From Brachyspira murdochii (GTDB lineage: Bacteria; Spirochaetota; JAAYUW01): a stretch of DNA of 64,000 nucleotides. Each line of letters opens with the position of its first letter. The first letter of the stretch is position 1. The translations under genes and the position numbers were made by a program. The notes below the pieces were generated by a model. It searched no databases. It saw only the letters and a list, made by a program, of their open reading frames with translations, and was not told the DNA's origin. Shown in pieces: positions 3,667-60,419 of the stretch. The stretch spans positions 28,474-92,473 of the forward strand of contig DYJT01000008.1 in assembly GCA_020722965.1 (NCBI GenBank). Direction: 5' to 3'.

Positions 3667-3720
3667 AAATATTGAAATAATAGATTAAAGAATTATCTTT
3701 GAAAAAAAAAGAGGTTTAAG

Positions 3721-4461
3721 TTGCGATTACTTTTTTTGAACGAAAAATTCAAAAAAGATAACCTTTATTATCTATCTTTAGAAGATAGTAAACATTTAAT
3801 TGCAAATAGATTTTCTATAGGAAATACTATAGATGCTGTTATTGATGATAAATTTGGTAAATTTACCATAAAAACGATCATAAAAAAAATCGTCTATGGT
3901 GAATTTCATCATATATCTTTGATTAAATCTTTTAATTCTAAACTATTTTTGATAATAGGGTTACCAAAAGATAGAGCGTTGATTCCAATTGTAGAGAAAT
4001 CCTCAGAGATTGGAGTAAATCAGATTTATCTTATTCCTTTAAATCATTCAGATAGAAAAAGTTTAAATGAAAACCAACTTTTAAGACTAAAAAAAATAGC
4101 TATAGAGGGATGCAAGCAGTCGGGAAATCCAAATATCCTGAAAATTGTTTATTTTGAATCACTCGAATCTATATTCAAAGATCTATCTTTACTAAATTGC
4201 ATTAAAATTTTTCTTGATGAAGAAGTAGATTTTAATAATAATTTTTTTAATTTAATTAATAAAAATAAAGTTGAAAGATTTAAAAATGTTGTTAATTTAA
4301 TTGGACCAGAAGGAGGACTATCCAGCCAAGAAAAGAGATTACTGATGCAAAATGATTTTTATCCTATAAGTTTAGGTAAGAATATATTACGGACTGAAAC
4401 TGCTGCAATAGTCTCATCTTTTTTAATTAAATCTTATCAAAATATAAATTTTGAAAATTAA
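3721..4461 (+). CDS. rsmE: 16S rRNA (uracil1498-N3) methyltransferase RsmE-like
   Basis: 246 aa. C-terminal SPOUT-type motif NLIGPEGGLSSQEKRLL is typical of RsmE. Apparent TTG start. Confidence 0.7.
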   Translation: MRLLFLNEKFKKDNLYYLSLEDSKHLIANRFSIGNTIDAVIDDKFGKFTIKTIIKKIVYGEFHHISLIKSFNSKLFLIIGLPKDRALIPIVEKSSEIGVNQIYLIPLNHSDRKSLNENQLLRLKKIAIEGCKQSGNPNILKIVYFESLESIFKDLSLLNCIKIFLDEEVDFNNNFFNLINKNKVERFKNVVNLIGPEGGLSSQEKRLLMQNDFYPISLGKNILRTETAAIVSSFLIKSYQNINFEN

Positions 4462-24633: not shown

Positions 24634-24706
24634 GCCGAGATAGCTCAGTCGGTAGAGCAAAGGACTGAAAATCCTTGTGTCGGCGGTTCGATTCCACCTC
24701 TCGGCA
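24634..24706 (+). tRNA. tRNA-Phe (GAA)
   Basis: GCCGAGATAGCTCAGTCGGTAGAGCAAAGGACTGAAAATCCTTGTGTCGGCGGTTCGATTCCACCTCTCGGCA. Perfect 7-bp acceptor stem, D-arm GCTC/GAGC, anticodon loop CTGAAAA, T-loop TTCGATT. CCA is not encoded. Confidence 0.85.
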
Positions 24707-31131: not shown

Positions 31132-32127
31132 TTACTTTTGCATCAATTCATCGAGCAGATAGGGTCTTTGGGAGAAAAAGGATTTCAATGTCGTCATAGT
31201 TATGGTGAAGATCTCTTTTGTGCTATCATTTATTGCGTAAAAAAGTTCTTGAACATCATCTGGGGATTTTTCCTTTTTAAAAATCGAACATTTAATCGAT
31301 TGCCCATTTTTTAAAACTATTATAATCTCGTATTCTACATTGTAATTTTTTGGCATTTCATCCAATACATCTACAGCACTCAAGTAAAATAATCTATCGA
31401 CAATTGACTTGATGGATTCATCTGGTATGAGTAATTTTGAAGCCTTAGGATTATAAGATGCAGTAAAATAGTATTTTTGTCCATCGAGTTCTATAATATT
31501 TTCATCTTTTGTAAGGTTATTGATGAATTTTATTAAAGCTATATCATCTCTGTTAATATTTGAGAAGATCTGTTTATTCCTGAGCTGATTGGCATTAAAA
31601 TCAATTAATTGAATAGCATCCAAAGTTATTACATAAATATATGGTTTATCAATAACTTTTAAATATATTCCATCATTTGATGGGATATTTTTCCCAAAAA
31701 TAATTCCGGTTTTAATCTGTTTACCATTTTCAAAATATTCGAAAATAAAAGTTTTCTGAGGATTATCAAGCCCAAAATGACTAAGAGAAAGATCAGACTC
31801 TATTTCAAATTTATCTTTATAATATAACTGTTGAAACCCGATTAGATATGACTGTATTATGGAATTGTCCGTTATATATTTTTGGGGTGATATAAATTCC
31901 CAATTATTATCAATTTTTTGAAGCTCGAATTTACTGTTTCCTATAGCATCTTCGACAAATATTTTGTTTATTAAGTCTGGATTAAAATTTTCAAAAACAT
32001 TATAAGAGATAGTTTTACTTTTTTTTGATTCAATCAATTTACTTATCCCTTTATATGAGAAGAAAATTATCAAGATTGCTGCCAATATGATAAGTAATAT
32101 TATTATCTGTTTATCTGAGCTCTTCAT
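31132..32127 (-). CDS. DUF4340-like protein associated with a GldG-type ABC transporter
   Basis: 331 aa with an N-terminal TM anchor. Last gene of the ABC-ATPase/ABC-2/GldG-like operon on the minus strand. Confidence 0.5.
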   Translation of the reverse strand: MKSSDKQIIILLIILAAILIIFFSYKGISKLIESKKSKTISYNVFENFNPDLINKIFVEDAIGNSKFELQKIDNNWEFISPQKYITDNSIIQSYLIGFQQLYYKDKFEIESDLSLSHFGLDNPQKTFIFEYFENGKQIKTGIIFGKNIPSNDGIYLKVIDKPYIYVITLDAIQLIDFNANQLRNKQIFSNINRDDIALIKFINNLTKDENIIELDGQKYYFTASYNPKASKLLIPDESIKSIVDRLFYLSAVDVLDEMPKNYNVEYEIIIVLKNGQSIKCSIFKKEKSPDDVQELFYAINDSTKEIFTITMTTLKSFFSQRPYLLDELMQK

Positions 32128-32129
32128 CT

Positions 32130-33836
32130 TTATCCCCTACTTTTTTCCTTGTATTTTCGTATTACCCTTATAGCGACAACAATCAAAATTATCAAGACCT
32201 CCAAAAAAACAAAACAGGTTAAGGATATTAATTTTTGAGATTTTGCGGATAAGTTTACTTTATTAGATTCAAGATCTTTTCCAGGAATATTTAATAGTGT
32301 ATAATCTTCAACAAGATAATTTATGCTATTTTCAAATAAGAGAAGATTTCCTATTGAATTACCATATTTTAATATCTTATTCGAGAAAATATCTGAATCA
32401 CAGAAAATTATTCCTATAGGTTGATTACCTCCATTTTTGTTTTTATTTTTAAGAGATTCAATTACAAAACCAAGGTGTTTCACACCTTTTTTTTCTCTTT
32501 TTGCATCAAAAGAAGGTTGTGCATTAAAATCGTAATCTTTTGCAACATCATTCCAGGAAGATTCAAATGTTTTTCCGATTGATACTATCGAAAACTCTTC
32601 TGATTTAGGAGTATCTGGATTAATTATTAAAGGCGCAGCAGTGTTTATAAGTATTGGTTTATTATATTCCTGAACTTTTTGTGTAATATTATGATATGAA
32701 AGCTGAGTGACAGGATAAAAGTTTCCTAAACTGTAATAAAAGTTTTGATCGTCGACGACTACACCCTCTTGCTGAATTATATCGTATTTTTTTAAGATCT
32801 TACTAACAATATTTACATTAGAATCAAAATCTGCCATAAGGACAAATTTTCCACCATTATTTATATAATCTTCAATTATTTTAATTTCCTGATCTGAATA
32901 ATTCTCTTTAGGGGCTGCAATAATTACAACAGATGCATCTTCCGGAATTTTGCCTTTTTCTAAAAGATTTATATTTATAACCTGCCTATCAATTTTATCT
33001 AAATATTCGCTTATGGTTGAAAAACCCTGTTCTTGATAATCATTTGTATATTTTTCCTTATGACCAAGAACAAAATATATCTTTTTACCTTCGGCAGAGA
33101 TTAAATATCTTATTGCCGAAGATATAATTTTTTCAGCTATAAAAAGTTGTTTACCCTCAGAAGTTTCTGTTGGAGCCTGGGTAATTTCATAGAATTCATA
33201 AGTTGAAAGTTTTTTATTTCTATCATTATAAGATATATGTACTGTTCCGTCCTCATTTATTCCATATTTTAAGGCTAAATCTGGTCTTTTGACTGGATCA
33301 ATAATTTCAAGTTTTACCTTATCAGAGTATTTTTTGTACTTACCTAAAATAGTCTGAATTATTTTACCTTCTTTTGAATCTAATTTCTCACTTGTTACGA
33401 AATATAAAATGGTAAGATCCTGTTTTAAACTCTTTACTAATTCCTTTGATTCATTAGAAATAGAATAAACTTTAGATGTAGTTAAATCTAACTTTGGTAG
33501 TTTCCCGTTAAGAATAGCCATCAAAATGATAACGATAATTAATACAATGATTATTCTAAGACCAACAGAAATACCTTCTGATCTTATCTTATCTCTTTTT
33601 AATTCTTTAATAGATTCTTTAAATATTTCTGGATTCAAGATAAAATATAAGATTATTCCAAGAAAACCAAAGGCTGAACCTATTAAAAAGATTTTTTTCG
33701 AAGTAACCCATGAAACTATGAGAAAGGCTATGACTATGGCTGATGATATCCAGAAGATAATTTCTGATACTAATTTATTTTTCTTAAGTTTATAATATAT
33801 ATTTAAAATTTTATCGAATAATTTGCTCATATTCAC
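32130..33836 (-). CDS. GldG-like ABC-transporter accessory protein (ABC-type uncharacterised transport system)
   Basis: 568 aa with N- and C-terminal TM segments and a large extracytoplasmic domain. Lies in an operon with the ABC-2 permease and ATPase. Confidence 0.6.
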   Translation of the reverse strand: MNMSKLFDKILNIYYKLKKNKLVSEIIFWISSAIVIAFLIVSWVTSKKIFLIGSAFGFLGIILYFILNPEIFKESIKELKRDKIRSEGISVGLRIIIVLIIVIILMAILNGKLPKLDLTTSKVYSISNESKELVKSLKQDLTILYFVTSEKLDSKEGKIIQTILGKYKKYSDKVKLEIIDPVKRPDLALKYGINEDGTVHISYNDRNKKLSTYEFYEITQAPTETSEGKQLFIAEKIISSAIRYLISAEGKKIYFVLGHKEKYTNDYQEQGFSTISEYLDKIDRQVININLLEKGKIPEDASVVIIAAPKENYSDQEIKIIEDYINNGGKFVLMADFDSNVNIVSKILKKYDIIQQEGVVVDDQNFYYSLGNFYPVTQLSYHNITQKVQEYNKPILINTAAPLIINPDTPKSEEFSIVSIGKTFESSWNDVAKDYDFNAQPSFDAKREKKGVKHLGFVIESLKNKNKNGGNQPIGIIFCDSDIFSNKILKYGNSIGNLLLFENSINYLVEDYTLLNIPGKDLESNKVNLSAKSQKLISLTCFVFLEVLIILIVVAIRVIRKYKEKSRG

Positions 33837-33841
33837 CTCTT

Positions 33842-34552
33842 TTACTTTTTAGATTCAATTAAAGTGATGTTTATATAGATAAGAACACCTATAAAAAGAA
33901 CAAAATATAGTATAGCATTAAAATCGAGTAATCCTTTAGAAAGGCTTGCTAGATGTTCCTGATAAGATAGATTGGAAATTATGTCTTTGAAAAATTGTTT
34001 ATAAACAAAATTTTTAAGCCAATCTATTAGGGAGATAAACAAAAGAACTACCCAGGAAATTGTAGTGGCTATAACCTGATTGTTCGAGATATAGGAAATT
34101 AAAAGACTAACAGTTGTAAATAAAACTACTAATAAGATATAAGCGAAAATAGAAAATATAAGAGGAAGAAGATCTGGTTTACCAACAACAAAGAGTATAA
34201 TTGTATAAATAATAATTGGGCTTATCAATATGAGTGAAAAAAGATTATATGCTATAAACTTACCAAAATATATCTGCTGATCACTGACAGGGCTTGTGTA
34301 TAAAAGCTCAAGGGTATTGTTCCTTCTTTCTTCGACAAATGCTCGGGATGTAATAATAGGTATTGAAAGAGCCAAAATAATTATCATGTTAGGAATATAA
34401 CCTTCTAAACTTGCAATTTGAGCACCTACTAAAAAAGCATAGAAAAAAAAGCCACTCAACTCAAAAAATACAAATAATATTATTGGTGCTATAATTGAGT
34501 TTAAAAATATTGAATTCAAATCTCTTTTTGCCAAAAGCCAACTCATTTTCAT
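33842..34552 (-). CDS. ABC-2 type transporter permease (GldF-like)
   Basis: 236 aa, about six TM helices. Confidence 0.65.
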   Translation of the reverse strand: MKMSWLLAKRDLNSIFLNSIIAPIILFVFFELSGFFFYAFLVGAQIASLEGYIPNMIIILALSIPIITSRAFVEERRNNTLELLYTSPVSDQQIYFGKFIAYNLFSLILISPIIIYTIILFVVGKPDLLPLIFSIFAYILLVVLFTTVSLLISYISNNQVIATTISWVVLLFISLIDWLKNFVYKQFFKDIISNLSYQEHLASLSKGLLDFNAILYFVLFIGVLIYINITLIESKK

Positions 34553-34553
34553 A

Positions 34554-35498
34554 TTATTCTTCCCCTTTTATAAGTTTTGCAAATATTTCTTCCAGAGAAA
34601 GCTCATGTTCTCTTATTTCAAGAATTGAAAAACCCTTTTCTATAATCATTCTGGTTATGTTAGATTGAACCGAAGGGAGATCTTCTGTTCTAATCATATA
34701 TTCATTTCCCTTTTTTTCGCAACTCTTAACATGAGGTATTGTATAAATATGATTAGATATATCACTCTCTTCCACTATTTTTAGTGAAAATAATCTATCT
34801 GGTTGTAATTCTCTTCTCAAATTATCTGCAGTATCTACTGCTATTATTTCACCTCTATTTAATATTATTACCCTGGAACATACTTCTTCAATTTCTGCTA
34901 AGATATGCGAAGAAAGAATTATAGTCTTCTCCTTCCCTATCTCTTTAATAAGGTTTCTAATCTCTATAATTTGGATTGGATCCAGCCCAATAGTAGGCTC
35001 ATCAAGTATTATTACCTTTGGATCATGTACTAAGGTGGCGGCTATACCAACTCTTTGCTTTAATCCTTTAGATAGTGTTTTTATCTTGCTGTAATATTTT
35101 TCCTGCAAACTTGTTTTTGTTACAACATAATCTATCCTTTCTTGTAACAAATTTGAGGGTAATCCATTGAGTTTTGCCACGAATTTTAAATAATCTACAA
35201 CTGGCATTTCAGGATATAAAGGTGGATTTTCAGGCAGATAACCAAGTAGTGCCTTTGCCTTCTTTGGTTCTTCGTCCATCATATAATTACCAATCTTAAC
35301 TGAGCCGGTATTTGGAAGGAAATAACCAGTAATTACTCTCATAGCCGTAGTTTTCCCTGCTCCATTAGGACCCAAAAAACCAACTATTTCACTTTCACTT
35401 ATTGAAAAAGAAATATCTTTAAGCGCTTGAAAGTTGCCATACCATTTGGAAACATTTTTTACTTCTATCATGAAAAGATCCTCCTTAATTTTTACCAA
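34554..35498 (-). CDS. ABC transporter ATP-binding protein
   Basis: Walker A (GPNGAGKTT), signature (LSKGLKQRVGIA) and Walker B (ILDEPTIGLD). Confidence 0.9.
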   Translation of the reverse strand: MVKIKEDLFMIEVKNVSKWYGNFQALKDISFSISESEIVGFLGPNGAGKTTAMRVITGYFLPNTGSVKIGNYMMDEEPKKAKALLGYLPENPPLYPEMPVVDYLKFVAKLNGLPSNLLQERIDYVVTKTSLQEKYYSKIKTLSKGLKQRVGIAATLVHDPKVIILDEPTIGLDPIQIIEIRNLIKEIGKEKTIILSSHILAEIEEVCSRVIILNRGEIIAVDTADNLRRELQPDRLFSLKIVEESDISNHIYTIPHVKSCEKKGNEYMIRTEDLPSVQSNITRMIIEKGFSILEIREHELSLEEIFAKLIKGEE

Positions 35499-36541
35499 CT
35501 TCTTTTTTTCTTCTTTTTATTTATCTTTTGCATTTGTACCATTTTTTTAATCTTTTCTTTCTCTTTTTCTTTTCTTTTCTCTTCTTCTAACTTGTTTAAA
35601 ACTCCTTCTTGTTCTCTTTTTTTCTCTATCTTATTCTTATTTTTATCTAAAAATCTTTTATATCTAATTTCAAAATAATCTTTTTTTTGGGCAAGATAAA
35701 GCATAGGTAATGCAATTAAAATCATTATCAGACATAAAATTTGGCCCATAGTCAAACCACCAAGGACAAATCCATTTTTGATTAACCAACCAGCATATTT
35801 ATCTGGTTCTCGAGTGTATTCAATTAAAAATCTAAAAAATCCATAGCCTAATATAAAAAGCCAGAAGATAAATCCTGTTTTAAGTTTTTTAGATTTTCTA
35901 TTCGCTTTTTCGAGAAAAAACAGAATTAAAAATAAAATCAATCCCTCAAAAAGTGCTTCATAAAGCTGTGAAGGATGACGGGCAACAAGATTTTGAGGAA
36001 TATCGGAATTTGGGAAAATCATTCCCCAGGGTAAATTAGTTGGTCTACCCCAGAGTTCACCATTTATGAAATTACCCAATCTCCCAAAGAAAAGACCAAG
36101 TGGTGCAATTACAACTGAAGCGTCTGCTACCTTATAAAAATTAAGGAATCTGTATCGCATTAAAAGAGCACTTGCCACAAGAACCCCAATTAATCCACCA
36201 TGAAAAGATAGACCACCACCTCTAATATTTATAATATTCCATAGAACATTTAAGATTGCGGAAATTCCTTTTTTACCTGGTTCGGCTTTAAATATGGATA
36301 CTGGATCATATAAAAGTATAAAAAACAATCTAGCACCTATCAATATGCCGATTGCTACCCATAGTATAACCTCCCATTCAAAATCAATAGGGGGGTTAAC
36401 AGATTCTATAAAATCTTTCATCTTATATCTTTTTGATAAATAGATTAGAGCTATAACAAGACCAATGACATACATAAAACCATACCATCGAATCTCAAAT
36501 GGACCAATGGTAAAAATAGCAGGATTAATATTAACGGTCAT
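35492..36541 (-). CDS. lgt: Prolipoprotein diacylglyceryl transferase with a ~70 aa Lys/Glu-rich C-terminal tail
   Basis: Lgt blocks (GPFEIRWYGFMYVIG, GGLSFHGGLIG, GRLGNFINGELWGRPT). The tail KRFLDKNKNKIEKKREQEGVLNKLEEEKRKEKEKEKIKK... is an extension. Confidence 0.85.
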   Translation of the reverse strand: MTVNINPAIFTIGPFEIRWYGFMYVIGLVIALIYLSKRYKMKDFIESVNPPIDFEWEVILWVAIGILIGARLFFILLYDPVSIFKAEPGKKGISAILNVLWNIINIRGGGLSFHGGLIGVLVASALLMRYRFLNFYKVADASVVIAPLGLFFGRLGNFINGELWGRPTNLPWGMIFPNSDIPQNLVARHPSQLYEALFEGLILFLILFFLEKANRKSKKLKTGFIFWLFILGYGFFRFLIEYTREPDKYAGWLIKNGFVLGGLTMGQILCLIMILIALPMLYLAQKKDYFEIRYKRFLDKNKNKIEKKREQEGVLNKLEEEKRKEKEKEKIKKMVQMQKINKKKKKRSW

Positions 36542-37352: not shown

Positions 37353-38174
37353 TTAATCGATTCCTAAAATCTTTCTTGTTTCATCGGCTGTTGCGACTTC
37401 CCTTCCCAGTTCTTTAGCTATTCTAACTATTCTTTCAACCAATTCTGCATTTGTTTTAGCCAGAACACCTTTTGAATAATAGATATTATCTTCAAAACCA
37501 ACCCTGACATTTCCGCCCATTGTAATTGCGTTTACCGCTAATGGTAATTCGAATCTACCTATTCCTGCTACTGTCCAAGTTGCATCTAATGGCAGGAGTT
37601 CTGTCATATAAAGAAGATTTTTAACAGAACCATTTAATGCTCCTGGTACCCCAAGGACTATATCAAAGTGCATATGTTTTGGGAGTAATCCCTCTTTTTT
37701 TAAAATTAATGCGTTTTGTATATGACCTGGTTCAAAACATTCTAACTCCGGTAAGATATTATGTTTTATCATTGTTTTAGCGAAATTTCTCATAAGTGGA
37801 AGGTCATTGACAAAAATATCGTCACCAAAATTAGTAGTTCCGCAATCGAGTGTGGCCATTTCTGGTTTTAGCTCTGCTACTGCAATTCTTTCCTGCCATT
37901 TCATTCCAACTGCTCCACCAGTCGATGGCTGGATTATTGGACCTTTTCCTGGTATTTTTGCTCTAATTGCATCGATTGCCTTTTTAAAAACATTTATATC
38001 CTGTGTAGGAGTTCCATCGTCTAATCTAACATGAAGATGTATTATAGATGCACCTGCGTCATAACATCTTTTAGCTTCCTGGGCAATCTCTTCTGCTGTG
38101 TATGGAACATTGGGATTTTCTTTTTTTGTAACTTCAGCACCGCATATAGCTGCAGTAATAATCAATTTTTCCAT
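37353..38174 (-). CDS. kce: 3-keto-5-aminohexanoate cleavage enzyme (BKACE/DUF849 family), lysine fermentation
   Basis: 273 aa. N-terminus (MEKLIITAAICGAEVTKKENPNVPYTAEEIAQEAKRCYDAGASIIHLHVR) and overall length are typical of Kce. Confidence 0.75.
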   Translation of the reverse strand: MEKLIITAAICGAEVTKKENPNVPYTAEEIAQEAKRCYDAGASIIHLHVRLDDGTPTQDINVFKKAIDAIRAKIPGKGPIIQPSTGGAVGMKWQERIAVAELKPEMATLDCGTTNFGDDIFVNDLPLMRNFAKTMIKHNILPELECFEPGHIQNALILKKEGLLPKHMHFDIVLGVPGALNGSVKNLLYMTELLPLDATWTVAGIGRFELPLAVNAITMGGNVRVGFEDNIYYSKGVLAKTNAELVERIVRIAKELGREVATADETRKILGID

Positions 38175-48902: not shown

Positions 48903-48932
48903 GGGCTACCCAAAAAGGTAGCCTTTTTTATA
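48903..48932. terminator. Bidirectional rho-independent terminator between groES and glgB
   Basis: GGGCTACC-loop-GGTAGCC followed by TTTTTTAT. Confidence 0.6.
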
Positions 48933-50949
48933 TTTTTTCATATGCCAAAGCAGTTCTACTGGGTAAATATATCGAAATTTCATATTTTTTTGAATCAATT
49001 TTATGAGTTCTATAAATAATTTCTTTATCTAATCTCTCAAAACCTCCAAAATCTTTGTCATCAGATGAAAATATTAGTTTATAGTCATCTGGTTGACCTA
49101 CCTCCAATTTAAAGTTTTCAAAGCTTTTTACAGGATTCAGGTTAAAGGCATAAACAATCCCATCCCTTATAAATGTTATTGTTTTGTTAGAATCATCTAC
49201 TTTTAAATATTCTATTTTGTAATTAAGTCGATTATGTTTTTGATTAAAAAATTGAATTAACTTCTTTTCAAAATTAAGTAAATATTTAAATTTTAAATTT
49301 TCGTCTTTTACCAAAGACCATAGCCTTCTAGCATGCTTAAAACTAAAATTATTCCCTTCACGGGGGAAATCTATCCATTCTGGATGCCCCCATTCATTAC
49401 CAATAAAATTTAAATAACCTTCTCCTCCTAAAAGAATAACTAAAAATTTAAAAATCTTATGTAATGCAATACCTCTATCTATTATCAAATTTTTATCTTC
49501 AATATGCATCCCGGTGTAAATATCTTTATCTACCAGTCTGAAAAACAAAGTCTTGCCTCCAACCATAGCTTGATCATGAGACTCGCAATAACTAATTACC
49601 TTCTCTAAAGATCTTTTTGACCTTAAGATATGGACAAGTTCACCCAAGTTTAAATTCTCATCGGGGGTATTTGGAATATTTTTTTCAAAGAAATCAGGTA
49701 TACCCATGCCTAATCTAAAATCAAATCCTACACCCCCATAACTAACAGGTAAAGCCATACCAGGAAAGCCACTCATATCCTCCGCAATTGTTATTTCATC
49801 TTCATCTATTTCATGTATCAGATCATTTGCAAGTTTTAAATAAATTACAGCATCTTTATCGAGATCATCTGAAAAATACATGTCATATGAGGTAAAAGCC
49901 TTTCCAATCCCATGATGATGATAGATCATTGATGTAATTCCATCAAACCTAAATCCATCGAAATGATACTCACAAATCCAGAATTTTAAATTTGACAAAA
50001 GAAAATGAATTACCTCATTTTTCCCATAATCGAATAATTTCGAATCCCATACCGGGTGGTTCCCTCTTTCTCCTCGATGGAAAAACTGATACTCCGTTCC
50101 ATCAAATAAATTGATGCCTTCATTTATATTTTTAACAGTATGCGAATGTATCAAATCTAAAAAAACAAGTAAACCAAGTCCATGTGCCGTATCAATTAAA
50201 TTTTTTATATCATCTATAGCCCCAAATCTTGAGGAAATCGCGAAAAAATTAGATACCTGATAACCAAAAGAACCATAATAGGGGTGTTCCATAATTGCCA
50301 TAAGTTGAATTGCATCATATCCAAGTTCTTTAATATAGAGTAAAATTTCTTTTGTAAACTCTTTGTAAGTAGTTATTCCTTCCTTTTCCGAGGACATACC
50401 TATATGAACTTCATATATTAACAATGGCTTATTTTTTTGCTCTCTTTTTTTATCTTTGATCTCGTTTTTCCACTTATAGCTATCTACCTTATCTGGTGGT
50501 AACAATAAAGCTGTGAAATCCTTTGTATTTTCATCCTGTATTAAATATCTAGCATAAAGAGGAATTTTAAAATGATTACCTATGCAGGATACGACAAAAG
50601 CCTTTACTCTAATCCCATCTGGAAACTTGTTAAAATCGAATAGATTTAAGGGTAATTCTATTTCCCAAATACCATTACCTAAGGGTTCAAGTCTATATTT
50701 TTTCTTTTCCCAATTACAAAAATCACCTGTAAAATAAATTGCATGAGCCGATGGCGCCCATTCTCTATAAATAAATGAATTTTCGGTATAATGAAATCCA
50801 AAATAAAGATAACCATTTGCAAAATCAGATAAGCTTGAATCTTTAACCAAGATCTTCTTTTTTTCTTTATATTTTGAATCAAGATCAATAAGAAAATCTT
50901 TATATGGTAAAAGATAAGGATCTAAATCCAATATTTTTGTGTTTTTCAT
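48928..50949 (-). CDS. glgB: GH13 1,4-alpha-glucan branching enzyme
   Basis: 673 aa. GH13 catalytic blocks (YEVHIGMSS, GYDAIQLMAIMEHPYYGSFGYQ, FLDLIHSH, FRFDGITSM) follow an N-terminal CBM48-like region. Confidence 0.8.
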   Translation of the reverse strand: MKNTKILDLDPYLLPYKDFLIDLDSKYKEKKKILVKDSSLSDFANGYLYFGFHYTENSFIYREWAPSAHAIYFTGDFCNWEKKKYRLEPLGNGIWEIELPLNLFDFNKFPDGIRVKAFVVSCIGNHFKIPLYARYLIQDENTKDFTALLLPPDKVDSYKWKNEIKDKKREQKNKPLLIYEVHIGMSSEKEGITTYKEFTKEILLYIKELGYDAIQLMAIMEHPYYGSFGYQVSNFFAISSRFGAIDDIKNLIDTAHGLGLLVFLDLIHSHTVKNINEGINLFDGTEYQFFHRGERGNHPVWDSKLFDYGKNEVIHFLLSNLKFWICEYHFDGFRFDGITSMIYHHHGIGKAFTSYDMYFSDDLDKDAVIYLKLANDLIHEIDEDEITIAEDMSGFPGMALPVSYGGVGFDFRLGMGIPDFFEKNIPNTPDENLNLGELVHILRSKRSLEKVISYCESHDQAMVGGKTLFFRLVDKDIYTGMHIEDKNLIIDRGIALHKIFKFLVILLGGEGYLNFIGNEWGHPEWIDFPREGNNFSFKHARRLWSLVKDENLKFKYLLNFEKKLIQFFNQKHNRLNYKIEYLKVDDSNKTITFIRDGIVYAFNLNPVKSFENFKLEVGQPDDYKLIFSSDDKDFGGFERLDKEIIYRTHKIDSKKYEISIYLPSRTALAYEKI

Positions 50950-51028
50950 ATATTCTATTTTAACATAAATTTAACTATAATCAAAATTAATTCAAACCCA
51001 AAATTTCAAAAATATATAAAAATGTTGA

Positions 51029-52900
51029 TTAAAAATAAAATGAAAAATCTATATTGATTACAAGATTACTTATAGGGTAATATAAAAGATCATAATATGT
51101 AGCAGATAATAGATTCTCGATTGAGATCGTTATATTTTGTTTTTCTGAGATGTAATATGTGAAGTTTAAATTCAATAAAAAATATGGGGAAAACCAGTTG
51201 TAGTTCTCTAAAGTTATATACCTTATACCACGATAGATTAATTCTAATTTAAGTTTAAATTTCTCTACTTCGGCTAGATCAATATTGAAGATTAAGTTCA
51301 ATAATGGAATATATGGGACATATACCTCATTTAAAATAAGTAATCCCTCGGTAATCTTTGATATCGTCAATGAAAAGTAGCCCGAGATATCTATATAGAA
51401 CTCTTCATTTAAAGGTATTGTATAAGAAAGATTTAAATCAATACCCAGGCTATTTCCTTGAGCAAAATTTATAGGCTTAAATCTATTGTCAAACCTTCGT
51501 AGCCATACTATAAAATCATTAAAATAATAATAATAAAATGAAAAATCAAAATTTAATTTAAATAGATTTAATATCAGACCAAATTCCATTCCAATCGATT
51601 TTTCTGGCTTTAAATCAGGATTACCAATCGCAATAATCCCATATGTACTATATAATTCCTGGTAAGTAGGAAGTCTATAACCAGTTGCTCCCTTAATAAA
51701 CAGTTTTAATAAATTATCTTCTTTAAGATCATAGCCTTTTTCTAAATGAAAATATATTGATGGTAAAACTTGATAAACTAAATCTTGTGTATATTTTAAA
51801 TTTAAATCTATCGATGATGAAGCTTCAATATTTAAAAGATTGTCAAAAGATTTATTGAAAATTAATGAAAAAGAAAATAATGATTGATATAAATTGTTAA
51901 ACATAAGTGTATCATCGTTAATAGATTCAATCCTAAGACTTAAACTTGAGTTTAATAAGGCATTTTTGCTTTTAAAAATCATAAATGGAAAATGTAAAAA
52001 GCCGAATAATAATTTCCTTTCTTCATCTATCAAATAAGTATAATCATGGCAGGAAAATTCTTCATAAAAATATTGAAAGGAAAACAATAGATCTTCAAAT
52101 TTTAAAAAGGAAAATAAAGATAAAGAGTCTTTGTATGTCTTATAATAAGGGAATTGAATATCGTTTGGAAGATATTTTTTTGAATAATCAACAAAAAAAG
52201 AGAACGCAAGAGACTGATATTCCAAATTAAATTTAGAAAAAATATCATAAAAATCCGAATTACCAAATGAATCATTATAACTATTAGTATTAAATTTTAC
52301 TTGAAGATCAAGGCTTGAAAAAAAATTGTTATTGAAAAATGATAAATGAGCAAACATCCCTATATTGATCAAAGATGATAGATATATTGTCCCAAAATTT
52401 ATTGCGCCAGACTCCTTGTTTTTTGTCCAGATAAGTATGGCACCACCTATTGCATTTGGGCCAAAAAGAGCCGAAACATTCCCTTTGTAAATGGTGATTT
52501 TACTTATAATGCTTAGTGGTAGTCTTAATGCATTAATTTGAGAAAGAGTTATTGGTATACCATCTAGAAATATCGCTATCCTGGAGGTTGTAAAGCCTCT
52601 TAAAACAAGAAAACCAATTTCTGCTTCATCTATACCAGAAGCAACATACATAAATGATTGACTTTGTAAAAACTCAACAAGAGTAGTTTTTTGACTCTCT
52701 TCAAAATCTTGTTCATCAAATGTTATTACAGAACCTTCTGTTTGTTGATCCTCTGCTGTAACATTGATTGTAATATCCTGTGCATAGATAATTTGAGTTA
52801 AAATGATTAAATATAAGATAAAAATAAACAAAATAGATAAAAAATTAAAATCTCTTTCTTGTAAAATATTAAATTTTGACTTTTTTATTTTTATTATCAT
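51029..52900 (-). CDS. TonB-dependent outer-membrane receptor (BtuB-like), last gene of the cobalamin-riboswitch operon
   Basis: Signal peptide. Plug-domain blocks (LRGFTTSRIAIFLDGIPI, GNVSALFGPNAIGGAILIWTK). Beta-barrel region ending in the aromatic C-terminus ...DFSFYF. Confidence 0.8.
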   Translation of the reverse strand: MIIKIKKSKFNILQERDFNFLSILFIFILYLIILTQIIYAQDITINVTAEDQQTEGSVITFDEQDFEESQKTTLVEFLQSQSFMYVASGIDEAEIGFLVLRGFTTSRIAIFLDGIPITLSQINALRLPLSIISKITIYKGNVSALFGPNAIGGAILIWTKNKESGAINFGTIYLSSLINIGMFAHLSFFNNNFFSSLDLQVKFNTNSYNDSFGNSDFYDIFSKFNLEYQSLAFSFFVDYSKKYLPNDIQFPYYKTYKDSLSLFSFLKFEDLLFSFQYFYEEFSCHDYTYLIDEERKLLFGFLHFPFMIFKSKNALLNSSLSLRIESINDDTLMFNNLYQSLFSFSLIFNKSFDNLLNIEASSSIDLNLKYTQDLVYQVLPSIYFHLEKGYDLKEDNLLKLFIKGATGYRLPTYQELYSTYGIIAIGNPDLKPEKSIGMEFGLILNLFKLNFDFSFYYYYFNDFIVWLRRFDNRFKPINFAQGNSLGIDLNLSYTIPLNEEFYIDISGYFSLTISKITEGLLILNEVYVPYIPLLNLIFNIDLAEVEKFKLKLELIYRGIRYITLENYNWFSPYFLLNLNFTYYISEKQNITISIENLLSATYYDLLYYPISNLVINIDFSFYF

Positions 52901-53027
52901 AGGAATAATATACTAGTTTTATAATTTTTATTATTTTTTATCTTTTTATTTTTAAATTTATTTTGCACCCATATTTTTTTTAACTTTTTAAACCCATCCC
53001 CTTTATTTAAATAAATCAGCCAATAAA

Positions 53028-53885
53028 TCAGCCAGATGTCACTGTCACATTTGATTTTATTGAATATATTACTTTTATAATAATCCAGAGGGGGAAATTT
53101 GTCTTCTGATCTTTTGGAAATGTAAATAATAGCAAAGATGCCTGCTTAATCGTATAATTATCCAATAGCTTAAAACCTGAACTTTCAAGTAATATAACAT
53201 CGATAACCTTACCAGTACTATCGATAGCTATATTTAATCTTACAATCCCCTGCATCTTAAGTTTCAAAGCATCTTTTGGATACTTAAATAGATTTTTATA
53301 ATTGATAGAATATGAAAATATATTTGAACCTATTGAAGAATTTATCGAATTAAGATCGGAATTAGTTGTCGAATTACCCTGGGAATTAATATCAGAATTT
53401 ACACCATTTGCAATATTTATATCACTTGAATCAAAATTATTTGTATTGTTTTGTTCATTTTCAATGTCTTGATTAATACTCTGGCTTATATTTGTGTTTA
53501 AAGCTTCTTCTTTTTTTTCTTCTTTTTGCGACAAATTTAATTTACTTATTGAATCCTCTGTTTTTTCGTTTGTTTTTTCATTTATCTTTTTTTCTTTATT
53601 TAATATTTTATTTTCTTTTGTTGCATTTAAATTTTTTATCACTTTCTGTTCGATTTTTTCATTTATAATACCAGTGTTTTGTGATAATATTATATTAATA
53701 GACTGATAATTAATCTTCCTATCATCCTTAAGTAAATTTAAAGATTCATTGTTTTGTTTTATAAATATTGCTATAAGAAAAATTATGATAAGATGAAGGG
53801 AAAAAGACAATATGAAGTAAAATATAAAACCCTTTTTGGCTACTTTTCTATGAAAATTAAATTTAAAATCTTTTCCCCTTCTCAT
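53028..53885 (-). CDS. TonB-family energy transducer
   Basis: N-terminal TM anchor, a low-complexity N/S/K-rich linker and a TonB C-terminal domain (YPKDALKLKMQGIVRLNIAIDSTGKVIDVILLESSG). Confidence 0.65.
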   Translation of the reverse strand: MRRGKDFKFNFHRKVAKKGFIFYFILSFSLHLIIIFLIAIFIKQNNESLNLLKDDRKINYQSINIILSQNTGIINEKIEQKVIKNLNATKENKILNKEKKINEKTNEKTEDSISKLNLSQKEEKKEEALNTNISQSINQDIENEQNNTNNFDSSDINIANGVNSDINSQGNSTTNSDLNSINSSIGSNIFSYSINYKNLFKYPKDALKLKMQGIVRLNIAIDSTGKVIDVILLESSGFKLLDNYTIKQASLLLFTFPKDQKTNFPLWIIIKVIYSIKSNVTVTSG

Positions 53886-53895
53886 AAAAAATCTT

Positions 53896-55062
53896 CTATT
53901 TACTCTTTCTAAAGATTATTGACACTGGATAACCTGAAAATTCATAGAAATTTGTAAATATAATGTTTGAAAATTGACTAACTAAATTAGTAAAAGAATT
54001 AGTAAAAGAAAAAGAAGATAGCGAACCCCATGGAGTATTTACAATTGCGATATATTGACTATTTGCCAAATCACCAACATGTATTAAAGAGAGGTTGCTT
54101 TTGGCCCCAACATTTGAATTTTTATCTACCCCGCTAACAAATGTTATAGCACTAGAATCAACTGGTAATCTATAAATTGACTTATTCGAAATAGTATAAA
54201 GATAACCGTTATAAATGGAAGATTTGGAACCAAAATATTCACCACTAGGTAACTTATCATAACTAATTTTGGTAATATTTAAATTAGATAAATCAATCTT
54301 AATCCTAAGAAAACCAGAAGATTGAGTAAAACCATAGTCTCCTGTAGAAATAAGATCGCAGTAGATTTCCCCAGAATGCTCATGAACATAAACCTGTTGA
54401 AAATTTTTTAAATTATATCCTATAAATGTAGTATCAAGGCTCTGCTCTTTCACCTTTTCTAAAGTATTCATTTTAAGAATATAGATTATACTATCATCAT
54501 AGGAATAATTAGAGAGATTATAGTTGGTGTTAATTGTCATTAAATATTCGGAGTTTAATTTTGCAATCGCCTGGATTCCTATATTTGAAGTGTATAAAGC
54601 AGAGCTTTCTTTAATAGTACCATCATTTAAATTTAGTTTAACAACTTTACCACTTGCATTCCCTGAAATATACATATAATCACCATCGATAAAGGCATTA
54701 TACGGATTTGTTCCTGCAGGAAGTGTATATTTTTGAACAAAAGAAAGATTCCTTGTAAATTTTGAAACGGAATTGTCAAGTGAATTTACAACATAATAAT
54801 ATTCTTCATCTGCTGAACTTAATATCTGCTGTGGGGCATAATTTGTATTCTCTGAAGGACCCACAGGAATTGGTTGATCTTTGAATTTACTTAATGTTAC
54901 ATCATAAGGAACGATAACATTTCCTGTTGAATTCAGTATCAAAATGTAATCATGGTAAGTCGCTAAAATATCTGTTTCAACAAATGTGCAGGAAAAAGCG
55001 ATTAAAAAAAAGATAAAAGATGCGAAAAGAGCCAGTGAAATCTTCAATTTTCGTGAATACAT
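53896..55062 (-). CDS. Hypothetical lipoprotein, first gene downstream of the cobalamin riboswitch (possible surface B12-binding protein)
   Basis: 388 aa. Signal peptide with a lipobox-like ...LIAFSC. S/T/N/Y-rich, with a repetitive beta-strand character. Confidence 0.4.
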   Translation of the reverse strand: MYSRKLKISLALFASFIFFLIAFSCTFVETDILATYHDYILILNSTGNVIVPYDVTLSKFKDQPIPVGPSENTNYAPQQILSSADEEYYYVVNSLDNSVSKFTRNLSFVQKYTLPAGTNPYNAFIDGDYMYISGNASGKVVKLNLNDGTIKESSALYTSNIGIQAIAKLNSEYLMTINTNYNLSNYSYDDSIIYILKMNTLEKVKEQSLDTTFIGYNLKNFQQVYVHEHSGEIYCDLISTGDYGFTQSSGFLRIKIDLSNLNITKISYDKLPSGEYFGSKSSIYNGYLYTISNKSIYRLPVDSSAITFVSGVDKNSNVGAKSNLSLIHVGDLANSQYIAIVNTPWGSLSSFSFTNSFTNLVSQFSNIIFTNFYEFSGYPVSIIFRKSK

Positions 55063-55214
55063 AAATCCTCCAAATAGATTTTTTGGAGGGGAGATGCTTC
55101 GTAATGAAAAGATTCTTTTTATATTACTTAAAAAAGCTTAAATAAATAAAATTTCAAAAAATATAAAAGAATCTTCAAACGAGAAGATAACCCTCCCCTA
55201 GCGGATATCTTCTT

Positions 55215-55362
55215 CAATACAGGAAGGTCTCCTGGCTATGGCAACCTCTTTAGCCTTCCCACCATAAAATGGCAGTGGCAAAATTAAAGAGTTTAAACCA
55301 TTACAGTGCCTGGGTGCGCACAGGATTTTCACCTGTTTCCCTTTTATGCTTTCGCTCCTGTA
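55215..55362 (-). ncRNA. Cobalamin (B12) riboswitch
   Basis: The minus strand reads ...AAAAGGGAAACAGGTGAAAATCCTGTGCGCACCCAGGCACTGTAATGG...TTGCCACTGCCATTTTATGGTGGGAAGGCTAAAGAGGTTGCCATAGCCAGGAGACCTTCCTG. This contains the B12 box GCCACTG and the conserved GGTGAAAATCC, GGGAAGGC and AGCCAGGAGACCT elements. The downstream leader has GGGGAGGG and CTCCCCTCC segments that can alternately sequester the GGAGG RBS of the 53896..55062 gene. Confidence 0.8.
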
Positions 55363-55669
55363 TAATAAGCAAAAAAAATTTAAACTTTATTTAAATTTAA
55401 TCAATAGATTTTCAAAAATAGATATAAATTTATTTATAAAAAGGGTAGTTATTTATTTAATAATATTCTTTTATTTATTCTTGTTTTATACACCACACCA
55501 ATTAAACTTTTTATTTATTTGCTTAATAATGTTTTAATCCGCCGGCAATTCAAAAAGTAATATGAAATTTCTATAGTAATTTACTTAATTAATAAGTTTT
55601 TTTCAACTACCAGGACGCCTAAAAGTATTATAAAATATCTATAGTATTATAAAAAATATCTATAATAGT

Positions 55670-57963: not shown

Positions 57964-59613
57964 TTGAAAATTTTATTAAAAAGCAAATATTTACCAAAAT
58001 TAAAAGGGAAAGAAAATATGAAAATAAACAAGATGCCCCTTAAACTTAATCTTAATAAATCAATTATCGATCAATCAAGGCAATTTGCCAGACAGATTGT
58101 TGATGAAGTACAGAAATTTATAGATTTACGATCAACAGTCTCGGTTGAAAGAGCTATACTTAGATTATTCGGAGTTGAATGGCATAGTGAGGATCAGGAA
58201 CTTCCATATGTTAATATTATTATTGACAAGCTTCATAAAGACAATTTACTTTCTAAAGGTGCAACATATTATCTTGTCAATGGTTTATTAAGAACAAATA
58301 TGCCACTAAAAGAATTTTGTGACAACATAGTAAATGGAAGACTATCATTTAAATCTATAGAACCCTTAGATTATGAAGTTGTCAAGGAAAAAGCATTCGA
58401 GTTGGCAAATAAATCGGCCGAAAATATACTTCGAAATGTCGAAAAAAGAGAACAATTAATTTCTGAATATGGTGAAGGTGAACCACCTTATCTATATCTT
58501 ATAGTTGCAACAGGGAATATATACGAAGATGTTATACAGGCACAAAATGCAGCTAGAAGTGGCGCTGATATTATAGCAGTAATAAGATCAACGGCACAAT
58601 CATTGTTGGATTATGTTCCTTATGGCGCTACAACAGAGGGATTTGGGGGCACCTATGCTACTCAAGAAAACTTCAGGATAATGCGTAAGGCTCTAGATGA
58701 AGTTTCAAAAGAAATAGGGAAATATATAAGATTGGTTAACTATTGTTCTGGTCTTTGCATGCCGGAAATAGCTGCTTTAGGAGCAATCGAAAGACTGGAT
58801 GTAATGTTAAATGATTCTATGTATGGTATTTTGTTTAGAGATATAAACATGCAAAGGACATTTATCGATCAATACTTTTCCAGGATGATTAATTCATTTG
58901 CAGAGATAGTTATTAATACAGGAGAAGATAACTATTTGACCACAAGTGATGCATTTGAAAAAGCACATACGGTTCTGGCATCTGAGCTCATTAATGAGCA
59001 ATTTGCATTGAAAGCATATATGCCTGAAAGATTAATGGGACTTGGACATGCCTTTGAGATAAATCCCGATATAGAGAATCAATTTTTATATGAACTTGCT
59101 CAAGCTCAGATGATTAAGGAAATTTTTCCGAATTCTCCTTTAAAATATATGCCTCCAACTAAATTTATGACTGGTAATATTTTTAAAGGACATGTACAGG
59201 ATGCACTTTTCAATTCCGTTTCTGTCATGACAGGGCAAACAATTCACCTTCTTGGAATGCTTACCGAGGCGATTCATACTCCATTTATGATGGATAGACA
59301 TTTATCACTTGAAAATGCGAAAATGGTTTTTAAAACCATGAGGAATATGGCAGATGAGATAGAATTTAAAAAAGATGGAATAATAATGAAAAGGGCGGAA
59401 AAAGTATTACAGGACGCACATGATCTATTAAAATCTATAACACAAAAAGGTCTTATGGAGGCAATTTCCGAAGGTAATTTCGCCGATATTAAAAGATCGC
59501 TTGATGGTGGAAAAGGTTTTAATGGGGTATTTTTAAAGGATGAATCATATTTTAATCCTTTTGAAAAGATTTTTATTGAAAAATTGAAAGAAAGAAATAA
59601 ACAATTCTCATAA
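57964..59613 (+). CDS. kamD: Lysine 5,6-aminomutase alpha subunit (PLP-binding TIM-barrel subunit)
   Basis: 549 aa. The length and the gene order with the downstream B12-binding subunit fit KamD. Confidence 0.75.
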   Translation: MKILLKSKYLPKLKGKENMKINKMPLKLNLNKSIIDQSRQFARQIVDEVQKFIDLRSTVSVERAILRLFGVEWHSEDQELPYVNIIIDKLHKDNLLSKGATYYLVNGLLRTNMPLKEFCDNIVNGRLSFKSIEPLDYEVVKEKAFELANKSAENILRNVEKREQLISEYGEGEPPYLYLIVATGNIYEDVIQAQNAARSGADIIAVIRSTAQSLLDYVPYGATTEGFGGTYATQENFRIMRKALDEVSKEIGKYIRLVNYCSGLCMPEIAALGAIERLDVMLNDSMYGILFRDINMQRTFIDQYFSRMINSFAEIVINTGEDNYLTTSDAFEKAHTVLASELINEQFALKAYMPERLMGLGHAFEINPDIENQFLYELAQAQMIKEIFPNSPLKYMPPTKFMTGNIFKGHVQDALFNSVSVMTGQTIHLLGMLTEAIHTPFMMDRHLSLENAKMVFKTMRNMADEIEFKKDGIIMKRAEKVLQDAHDLLKSITQKGLMEAISEGNFADIKRSLDGGKGFNGVFLKDESYFNPFEKIFIEKLKERNKQFS

Positions 59614-59654: not shown

Positions 59655-60419
59655 ATGAAAGCAAAAGAAATAGATTTAAAAAAAGTTAAACCCTATGGAG
59701 ATACTCTTGATGATGGCAAAATACAGTTTTCTTTTACTTTGCCAGTTCCATATGGCGATGAGGCTAAAGAATGTGCAAAAAGATATCTGGAGGGACTTGG
59801 ATTCGAAAATGTTATGATTACCCACATGGATTCAATGGGCAAGGGTTTTTCTTTTTTTGTCGCATATGGTGCTGCAACTAAGACTATAGATTTTACATCA
59901 ATAGTTGTTCCAAAGGCAAACAAAGAAATATGGGATAAACACACTATAATTGAAAAAATAGAAAATGAACTGGGAAGGCAAATTGTCTTAGTTGGCGCAT
60001 GTATTGAATCTGATGCCCACACAGTTGGAATAGATGCTATTTTAAACATGAAGGGTATTGCAGGACACAAAGGATTGGAATCTTACCATGGAGTTCAAGT
60101 TTATAATATGGGTGCACAGGTTCCTTCCGAAGAAGTTGTTGCTTTAGCCAAAAAGGTAAATGCCGATGTTATATTAATTTCTCAAATTGTAACGCAGAAA
60201 GATGTGCATATTGCAAATATGACTAAATTCATTGAGATTCTTGAGGCTGAAAAATTAAGAGATAAAATTATAGCAATTGCAGGGGGTCCTCGGATAACTC
60301 ATGAACTAGCTTTGGAACTTGGATTCGATGCTGGTTTTGGAGTAGGTACATTTCCCGAAGATGTTGCCACATTTATAGTTCAAATGCTTTTGAAAAAGAA
60401 AAATGAAAAAAGAATATAA
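59655..60419 (+). CDS. kamE: Lysine 5,6-aminomutase beta subunit (B12-binding Rossmann subunit)
   Basis: 254 aa with the cobalamin-binding motif DxHxxG (ESDAHTVGID) in a C-terminal Rossmann-like domain. Confidence 0.8.
   Translation: MKAKEIDLKKVKPYGDTLDDGKIQFSFTLPVPYGDEAKECAKRYLEGLGFENVMITHMDSMGKGFSFFVAYGAATKTIDFTSIVVPKANKEIWDKHTIIEKIENELGRQIVLVGACIESDAHTVGIDAILNMKGIAGHKGLESYHGVQVYNMGAQVPSEEVVALAKKVNADVILISQIVTQKDVHIANMTKFIEILEAEKLRDKIIAIAGGPRITHELALELGFDAGFGVGTFPEDVATFIVQMLLKKKNEKRI

Follow-up and report, generated by a model that had tools for sequence, protein, structure and literature searches.

The closest described systems are the BtuB-BtuG(-BtuH) loci of Bacteroides, in which a cobalamin riboswitch, a TonB-dependent receptor (TBDR), and an accessory lipoprotein occur together (Wexler 2018, PMC6143338; Abellon-Ruiz 2023, PMC10404256; Putnam 2022, PMC8941943). 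The lipoprotein BtuG, represented by BtuG1, BtuG2, and BtuG3 of B. thetaiotaomicron (3DSM, 8BMZ, 8BN0, 8OKV, 8PTD; DUF5074), is held to be key to the gut B12 competitiveness of Bacteroidetes, and its homologues have been stated to be exclusive to that phylum on the basis of 313 gut genomes (PMC6143338). Here, we describe a minus-strand operon in a 64-kb stretch of DNA (64,000 nucleotides, hereafter the window; contig DYJT01000008.1 of assembly GCA_020722965.1, labelled Brachyspira murdochii, Spirochaetota) in which a cobalamin riboswitch is followed by genes for a 388-aa lipoprotein, a TonB-family protein, and a BtuB-like TBDR. With a probability of about 0.72, we read it as an operon with which an uncultured spirochaete of Exilispira type takes up corrinoids across its outer membrane. 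In this reading, B12 represses the operon via a class-I riboswitch acting at translation initiation, and the genes encode a BtuG-like propeller, a BtuB-like receptor, and a TonB. The first product, a lipid-anchored propeller, would capture corrinoids in the manner of Bacteroides BtuG and hand them to the BtuB-like transporter encoded two genes downstream, which the TonB paralogue encoded between the two would energise. The locus is best described as a B12 riboswitch plus BtuB system of the ordinary kind, whose BtuG-like partner is divergent and lies outside Bacteroidota.

Compared with the Bacteroides loci, the window operon is minimal, without btuFCD, BtuH, BtuJ, or BtuK, and it has its own TonB, which the Bacteroides loci do not. 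Its genes run lipoprotein, tonB, receptor, whereas in Bacteroides btuB stands immediately before btuG. The lipoprotein shares only about 12-14% identity with BtuG and, unlike BtuG, comes from Spirochaetota and is without the Bacteroidota lipoprotein export signal. A first-pass annotation of this DNA had called such a system unusual outside Bacteroidetes. This is true of the literature searched (PMC6143338), and a full-text search on BtuG and spirochaetes found no report of a spirochaete BtuG homologue; it is not true of metagenome bins, since the architecture of TBDR, propeller, and TonB recurs in other non-Bacteroidota bins and is thus under-reported rather than unique. Because the accessory family DUF4465/BtuJ already reaches Spirochaetota (PMC13398666), a BtuG-like extension into this phylum is not startling.

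The riboswitch and the operon behind it

In an Rfam cmscan of the whole window, RF00174 is the sole riboswitch, at 101.2 bits (gathering score, 31.5; E value, 3.8e-24) and with a match that spans model positions 1-189 of 189, the full length of the model. The cobalamin riboswitch that the first-pass annotation had placed on the minus strand, its B12 box, and the other motifs quoted for it are all found where they were said to be (Table 1); the bounds of 55.22-55.36 kb were too narrow, the aptamer reaching about 15 nt further on either side. Orthologous riboswitches (94-104 bits) lie directly upstream of the lipoprotein orthologue in 12 of 12 Exilispira-type loci. The element is a standard member of RF00174, and the riboswitch and receptor are in themselves ordinary. 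Minus-strand open reading frames (ORFs) and Pfam and NCBIfam domains agree with the annotated gene order of lipoprotein, TonB, and TBDR behind the riboswitch; tonB starts 10 nt past the stop codon of the lipoprotein gene, and all three genes are probably co-transcribed.

The lipoprotein and its relation to BtuG

The first gene had been read as encoding a beta-rich lipoprotein reminiscent of BtuG, and structure prediction bears this out. An AlphaFold2 model built on a 12-sequence alignment is an all-beta seven-bladed propeller (predicted local distance difference test score, pLDDT, 87; predicted template modelling score 0.85), and a Foldseek search of the PDB ranks 14 BtuG entries first (BT1954, BT2095, BtuG1, and 3DSM among them; E values 2e-13 to 1.4e-11, template modelling (TM) score about 0.7), followed by the archaeal YVTN propeller 1L0Q. 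The modelled fold is certainly that of a seven-bladed propeller, and BtuG is its nearest solved structure by a margin too small to carry the argument alone. The N-terminus has a basic n-region, a hydrophobic helix (residues 4-23), an invariant S24-C25 that completes the lipobox (...AFS-C25), and a low-confidence linker (residues 25-29), the features of a lipoprotein signal with C25 as the predicted lipidated cysteine. C25 aligns with Cys32 of BtuG2, and the window also encodes Lgt, the prolipoprotein diacylglyceryl transferase. PDB sequence matches of the protein and its family profile to CJ1041c (E 0.002-0.07) and EcoRI (0.03) were marginal or spurious and were discarded.

At the sequence level, the connection to BtuG runs through an intermediate family. 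A hidden Markov model search of 1.84 billion cluster representatives returned one close cluster and about 150 weak matches, and from the latter we drew proteins of 326-371 aa with a lipobox cysteine and the same blade motifs (members of this family measure about 340-380 aa overall). In profile-profile comparison, the window's family matches the intermediate family with an E value of 7.7e-31 over 208 columns, and the intermediate family matches the BtuG sequences (Table S2 of PMC6143338) with an E value of 1.7e-34, the alignment covering the full length and keeping register from the lipobox. A few intermediate-family members reach PF16819. For one member of the family, from a Spirochaetales metagenome-assembled genome (MAG), the structural model (P0171; pLDDT 87) has BtuG as its best PDB match at a TM score of 0.75-0.80. 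The ligand contacts described for BtuG2 are E55, G56, Q93, N107, S131, an arginine, W149, S195, Q219, Y239, and W272, and BtuG1 and BtuG2 share about 60% of their contacts (bioRxiv 10.1101/2024.02.16.580637). In a joint MAFFT alignment of the three families, the lipid-anchor cysteine is aligned in all three, and several contacts are retained, at an alignment identity of about 12% (Q93 as Q78, Q219 as N220, N107 as S94, S131 as T118, S195 as N180, Y239 as Y243, and W272 as Y276). Within the window's family, the retained positions vary little or not at all, and some belong to the generic repeat motif. As far as such an alignment can tell, the pattern of contact residues is compatible with a BtuG-like ligand site.

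Close homologues of the lipoprotein form 12 clusters (49-100% identity; 5.8 billion proteins searched) and their sources are metagenomes and MAGs that carry the label Exilispira sp. or Spirochaetales bacterium; among 185,579 species-representative genomes, the protein occurs in six species, all of one lineage. The neighbourhood of kamDE, two genes of no assigned family, riboswitch, lipoprotein, tonB, receptor, and glgB is present wherever the contig and gene map of the 12 loci reach far enough. Two loci in GTDB representatives labelled 'uncultured Brachyspira sp.' (L017 and L021; CAYVTU01 and CAZOPR01) are of Exilispira type, with 58% lipoprotein identity and the same riboswitch, which suggests that this label is imprecise.

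Related propeller loci in other lineages

We compared nine loci from other lineages that encode proteins of the intermediate family (taxon labels are given only for L013, a Spirochaetales MAG, and P0180, a Myxococcota MAG). A cobalamin riboswitch is present in six of the nine, many more than the background density of RF00174 would give. In L013, a riboswitch of 69.7 bits is followed by two small ORFs, a TBDR, the propeller, a TonB gene, and Peripla_BP_2, FecCD, and ABC_tran genes that make up a BtuFCD-like set, the start of the propeller gene overlapping the stop of the TBDR gene. L015, with a GC content of 56%, has a riboswitch of 73.1 bits, three ORFs, a TBDR, the propeller, one ORF, and TonB-ExbB-ExbD. 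The arrangement is simpler in L014 (riboswitch of 95.4 bits, TBDR, propeller); L024 and L025 each have a riboswitch of about 100 bits, followed by TBDR and propeller in L025, the one of the two in which genes were scanned. L026 has a riboswitch, two ORFs, a TBDR, a BtuF-like gene, and the propeller, and in L023 the TBDR adjoins the propeller with no riboswitch within the fetched flank. No riboswitch was found in L016 or L027. An unannotated 326-aa ORF upstream of the TBDR in L015 matches BtuH2 of B. thetaiotaomicron (7biz_A, E 6.8e-33) as well as the C-terminal, BtuH-like part of BtuG1 (8blw_B, E 2.1e-27), and L023 encodes a 45%-identical copy, so BtuH-type B12 binders also occur in non-Exilispira loci. 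With their BtuF/C/D-like or BtuH-like genes, L013, L015, and L026 resemble the Bacteroides loci. In a small database, BLASTP with the window protein itself finds the propellers of L026 (8.5e-10), L025 (2.4e-9), and L023 (1e-7). Outside the Exilispira clade, too, and in at least one further spirochaete among others, the propeller-lipoprotein lineage recurrently accompanies receptors under B12 control, and this independent genomic context is the strongest evidence that we have.

The same context bears on whether the first gene encodes a generic propeller of the YVTN/YncE/lactonase type, such as an enzyme or adhesin, whose role is unrelated to corrinoids and which merely shares the mRNA. Generic YVTN propellers used as a control do match the intermediate family (E 3e-27 over 285 columns). 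The alignment of the window protein to such propellers covers only part of the length and is out of register, whereas that to the BtuG lineage begins at the lipobox and continues from there, and generic representatives (1L0Q, 3VGZ, 6IGB) are not lipoproteins of riboswitch-TBDR operons. A generic role also fits poorly with the place of the gene as first cistron behind a riboswitch-controlled ribosome binding site (RBS) in all 12 Exilispira-type loci, with remote homologues of independent lineages in the riboswitch-TBDR operons of six of the nine related loci, with a bona fide BtuH homologue in one of them, and with the several invariant BtuG contact positions retained in the alignment of about 12% identity. 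We consider such a role improbable.

A second alternative accepts corrinoid binding and places the propeller elsewhere: it could face the periplasm as a corrinoid-binding and hand-off protein, a functional substitute for BtuF instead of a surface lid. Spirochaetal lipoproteins can be anchored at the outer or the inner face of the outer membrane, or on the inner membrane, the surface-export signal of Bacteroidota is not applicable here, and no Peripla_BP_2 (BtuF-type) gene is present in the operon or in the 64-kb window, all of which would suit a periplasmic protein. In L013 and L026, however, the propeller co-occurs with a BtuF-like Peripla_BP_2 protein and is therefore not a BtuF replacement in those loci. 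The nearest solved structures are extracellular lids on BtuB (8bmx, 8p97, 8blw), and the propeller and TBDR genes of the related loci are tightly coupled, overlapping or adjacent. A periplasmic location is unlikely on this evidence, if slightly less so than a generic role, and a surface-exposed lipoprotein that binds B12 and contacts the receptor would fit the locus better.

Between riboswitch and receptor, the related loci also contain small ORFs of 178-353 aa without a Pfam or PDB match, some of which are conserved between loci (46% identity between L015_183 and L023_185, 33% between L013_353 and L026_230). They may encode undescribed accessory proteins of corrinoid uptake.

Several observations weigh against the uptake-operon reading with a BtuG-like first product. 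First, a direct hhalign comparison of the window's family with BtuG (95%, E 3.7e-8 over 253 columns) was rejected as evidence for BtuG membership in particular because the generic YVTN control scores alike (E 5.1e-8 over 108 columns); the direct link being unspecific, we count only the genomic context and the chain that runs via the intermediate family. Second, the protein has no Pfam match, including DUF5074 (PF16819), and no NCBIfam match even at an E value of 0.01. Failing the DUF5074 sequence-family test, it is filed here as a divergent relative in a wider BtuG-like superfamily and not as a DUF5074 member. Third, three contacts of BtuG2 are not retained in the alignment (E55 to S45, W149 to A136, and R133 to P120), and the mature protein is less acidic (isoelectric point 5.3 vs 4.6 for BtuG2). 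Fourth, for spirochaetes, surface or periplasmic orientation of a lipoprotein is not predictable with the tools used here. Fifth, because the close homologues all come from one narrow lineage, their shared synteny, kamDE included, amounts to a single observation. Finally, an internal promoter could lie in the 127 nt that separate tonB from the receptor gene; the lack of btuFCD in the window leaves the inner-membrane step unaccounted for; and the regulatory RNA elements described below are invariant, so that no covariation test of their alternative pairings is possible. Weighing these points against the context, we regard the modelled lipoprotein as BtuG-like in fold, lipid anchor, operon partner, and regulation, and as a probable B12 binder.

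Receptor and TonB protein

The annotation of the third gene as a BtuB-like TBDR stands: its product has Plug (PF07715, 57.4 bits) and TonB-dependent barrel (PF00593, 67.2 bits) domains, and its nearest relatives by sequence in the PDB are BtuB2 of B. thetaiotaomicron (2.2e-9; crystallised together with BtuG2), BtuB of E. coli (2.2e-7), and BtuB3. A signal peptide is followed by the TonB-box-like DITINVTA, which is conserved in orthologues and resembles DTLVVTA of E. coli BtuB. The receptor scores below the BtuB equivalog cut-offs of TIGR01779 and NF007926 (68.9 bits vs 599.7 and 51 vs 836). Judging from its sequence, it would work like BtuB and is not an equivalog-level member.

The second gene, annotated as a TonB homologue, encodes a hydrophobic N-terminal membrane anchor (about residues 19-43), a linker rich in N, S, K, and E, and a C-terminal TonB_C domain above both cut-offs (PF03544, 43 bits vs 24.6; TIGR01352, 39 vs 27.1). 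Its best PDB sequence relative is HasB, a TonB paralogue dedicated to one receptor. As in the HasB/HasR system of Serratia, an uptake operon for a single substrate includes the gene of a TonB_C protein; unlike HasB, the window protein belongs to a corrinoid and not a heme system, and its linker is rich in N, S, K, and E, not in proline. No exbBD genes adjoin tonB in the window, whereas exbBD are present in L015. L013 and L015, both related operons, contain TonB genes as well, so that a TonB of its own is a recurring trait of this type of locus.

A predicted translational switch

In translational cobalamin riboswitches, a ligand-stabilised kissing loop between L5 and L13 promotes an RBS hairpin, as established for E. 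coli btuB (PMC10327014). The window leader has the parts of that riboswitch: a class-I aptamer with a B12 box, a P13-like hairpin whose G-rich loop could kiss a C-rich L5, and an RBS-sequestering hairpin downstream. It differs from E. coli btuB in that L13 carries an RBS-like GGAGG(G), which lies 40-107 nt from the anti-RBS segment across a lineage-variable hairpin, and in L5 (ACCCAG/CCCCAG vs a UCCCG consensus), and switching here is predicted from sequence.

A base-by-base comparison of eight related leaders gives the order aptamer, about 22 nt, P13-like hairpin, hairpin spacer of 40-107 nt, GCAUCUCCCCUCCAAA, 10-13 nt, GGAGGA, 4 nt, and AUG. The segments GGGGAGGG, which sits in the 16-nt loop L13, CUCCCCUCC, and GGAGG are identical in all eight leaders, as are CTCCCCTCC and the 4-nt spacing between RBS and ATG, whereas the encoded proteins are just 49-59% identical. 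The P13-like hairpin and its loop sequence are invariant in seven of the eight loci; in L010, L13 differs at two bases, which are close to its 5' end and not part of the G-run. The spacer sequences are unalignable, and yet in every locus the spacer forms a hairpin (-8 to -20 kcal/mol) and keeps its basal stem paired even as the sequence of that stem differs. The G-rich and C-rich 8-9-mers each occur once in the 64 kb on either strand, at a GC content of 28%. By computation, AGGGGAG of L13 pairs with CUCCCCU of the anti-RBS (extended duplex, -15.8 kcal/mol), the anti-RBS pairs with the RBS (CCUCCAAA with UUUGGAGG, -12.7 kcal/mol), and the two pairings overlap by 3 nt and are thus mutually exclusive. 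The minimum-free-energy fold of the leader shows the RBS hairpin. L5 reads ACCCAG in the window and CCCCAG in three of the seven related leaders where it was read, and L13 contains GGGG and GGGU, complementary to L5; both loops vary too little for covariation. L13 is named here as a candidate, both as kissing-loop partner of L5 (CCC) and as alternative partner of the anti-RBS. In L003, an extra hairpin of about 62 nt stands between aptamer and P13 hairpin and lengthens the aptamer-to-L13 distance to 84 nt from the usual 22, with the switching elements all unchanged.

At low corrinoid levels, the G-rich GGGGAGGG of L13 would pair with the downstream CUCCCCUCC and leave the Shine-Dalgarno GGAGG free for translation of the first gene. 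With adenosylcobalamin (AdoCbl) bound to the aptamer, L5 (CCC) would take the G-run of L13 in the canonical kissing loop, and the freed CUCCCCUCCAAA would then fold onto UUUGGAGG and hide the RBS. This switching mechanism is our proposal; the control of translation that the first-pass annotation had suggested is supported more broadly, by three complementary segments conserved base for base in eight leaders despite the unalignable spacers. Alternatively, regulation could be transcriptional, by attenuation, or act on mRNA stability only, with the complementarity of GGGGAGGG and CUCCCCUCC incidental. Many cobalamin riboswitches of other phyla are transcriptional (PMC10327014), and a consensus scan rates the RBS hairpin, CCUCCAAA...UUUGGAGG with AUUUAUGUAU behind it, as terminator-like. 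However, its stem is of 8 bp with 4 G-C pairs and its U-rich tail includes the start codon, the scan found no other intrinsic terminator in the leader, and a leader terminator was rejected, the sole terminator-like site being the RBS hairpin itself. The anti-RBS overlaps both candidate partners, and the G-rich and C-rich 8-9-mers, unique in the window, stay invariant in the eight leaders across a freely changing spacer. We give purely transcriptional or stability-based regulation little credence and retain translational control.

Implications

If the spirochaetal protein and the intermediate family bind corrinoids, 'lidded' TonB-dependent B12 capture would be widespread among diderms of anaerobic digesters, sediments, and hot springs, current annotation ('hypothetical protein', 'YncE family protein') would systematically miss such proteins, and models of B12 auxotrophy and cross-feeding in these communities would gain a recognisable marker. 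We put even odds on a broader proposal, in which BtuG-type propellers would be a phylum-spanning superfamily, largely hidden from current family models, that partners riboswitch-controlled BtuB in Spirochaetota and other diderms; the Exilispira branch would be the most divergent, with a private TonB and with L13 as an RBS mimic that titrates the anti-RBS. The operon would extend the BtuG paradigm beyond Bacteroidota and offer a clean candidate for experiment, and, in a genome of 28% GC, it appears to present a translational cobalamin switch in compact natural form, its switching elements unusually clean and free of variation.

Neighbouring genes and other features

The first-pass annotation had also drawn attention to B12-dependent kamDE genes nearby and had seen in them a functional reason for the system. 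The genes are there, 2.6 kb away on the other strand; both pass their equivalog cut-offs (Table 1), and a PF02310 B12-binding domain is matched in KamDE. They encode an AdoCbl-dependent lysine 5,6-aminomutase, are divergent from the operon, and lie outside riboswitch control. They explain a demand for AdoCbl. No B12 biosynthesis or btuFCD genes were seen among the window ORFs scanned, and a need for imported corrinoid is plausible. The proximity of kamDE was rejected as evidence of functional coupling: the genes lie on the opposite strand, and their synteny with the operon, conserved in no lineage but Exilispira, is missing from the riboswitch-propeller loci elsewhere. A BKACE/Kce-type gene (3-keto-5-aminohexanoate cleavage enzyme family) lies about 20 kb from kamDE, and the lysine-fermentation genes appear scattered, not clustered. 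The two genes that separate kamD from the riboswitch keep their synteny in every Exilispira-type locus; they were rejected as B12 accessory proteins, having no significant family and no similarity to the accessory ORFs of related B12 loci.

Table 1. Positions of the features discussed; numbers refer to the window except where a locus is named.
Feature	Position	Strand	Basis or remark
Cobalamin riboswitch aptamer	55205-55376	-	RF00174, class with P6 extension
Conserved core motif GGTGAAAATCC	55323-55333	-	Motif search
P5/L5 stem-loop GCACCCAGGC	55308-55317	-	Within aptamer
B12 box GCCACTG	55273-55279	-	Motif search
Conserved core motif GGGAAGGC	55253-55260	-	Motif search
Conserved core motif AGCCAGGAGACCT	55225-55237	-	Motif search
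P13-like hairpin, stem GAAGAAGAUA/UAUCUUCUC, loop L13 UCCGCUAGGGGAGGGU	55181-55215	-	Conservation, folding
GGGGAGGG segment	within 55191-55200	-	In L13
Variable spacer hairpin	55100-55181	-	Eight-locus comparison; brings P13 hairpin beside anti-RBS
Anti-RBS segment CUCCCCUCCAAA	55082-55093	-	Can pair with L13 (AGGGGAG) or RBS (UUUGGAGG)
CTCCCCTCC	within 55082-55093	-	
Shine-Dalgarno region UUUGGAGGA, including GGAGGA	55066-55074	-	4 nt before ATG at 55062
BtuG-like lipoprotein gene, 388 aa	53896-55062	-	ORF; first cistron after riboswitch
TonB-family protein gene, 285 aa	53028-53885	-	ORF; TonB_C domain
BtuB-like TBDR gene, 623 aa	51029-52900	-	ORF; Plug and barrel
Gene between kamD and riboswitch, 222 aa	55670-56338	-	No significant family
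Gene between kamD and riboswitch, 513 aa	56368-57909	-	Sub-threshold HisKA match only, 15.9 bits
kamD	57964-59613	+	NCBIfam NF052384, 858.9 bits vs cut-off 600
kamE	59655-60419	+	NCBIfam NF052385, 362 bits vs cut-off 280
BKACE/Kce-type gene	37353-38174	-	347 bits
glgB-like branching enzyme gene	48928-50949	-	
Gap between receptor gene and glgB	50950-51028		79 nt
Extended -10 promoter-like site	50984-50957		In glgB gap
ABC-2 type transporter cluster	31132-35498, 35492-36541	-	ABC_tran, ABC2_membrane, ABC_transp_aux, DUF4340
tRNA gene	24634-24706	+	Rfam, 68.3 bits
Extra leader hairpin of L003	L003:7816-7900		
BtuH homologue of L015, 326 aa	L015:2389-3369	+	
Copy of the BtuH homologue	L023:744-1685		
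Small ORFs of L013	L013:2490-4113		
Small ORFs of L015	L015:1831-2382, 3384-4115, 7137-7673		
Small ORFs of L026	L026:514-1787		
Small ORF of L023	L023:185-742		

Apart from the riboswitch, the tRNA gene is the only Rfam match in the window. The ABC-2 type transporter cluster lies directly downstream of lgt. On the same strand as the operon, the glgB-like gene follows the receptor gene; the gap between them has no terminator-like site and contains an extended -10 promoter-like site, and the order of receptor gene and glgB is kept in relatives.

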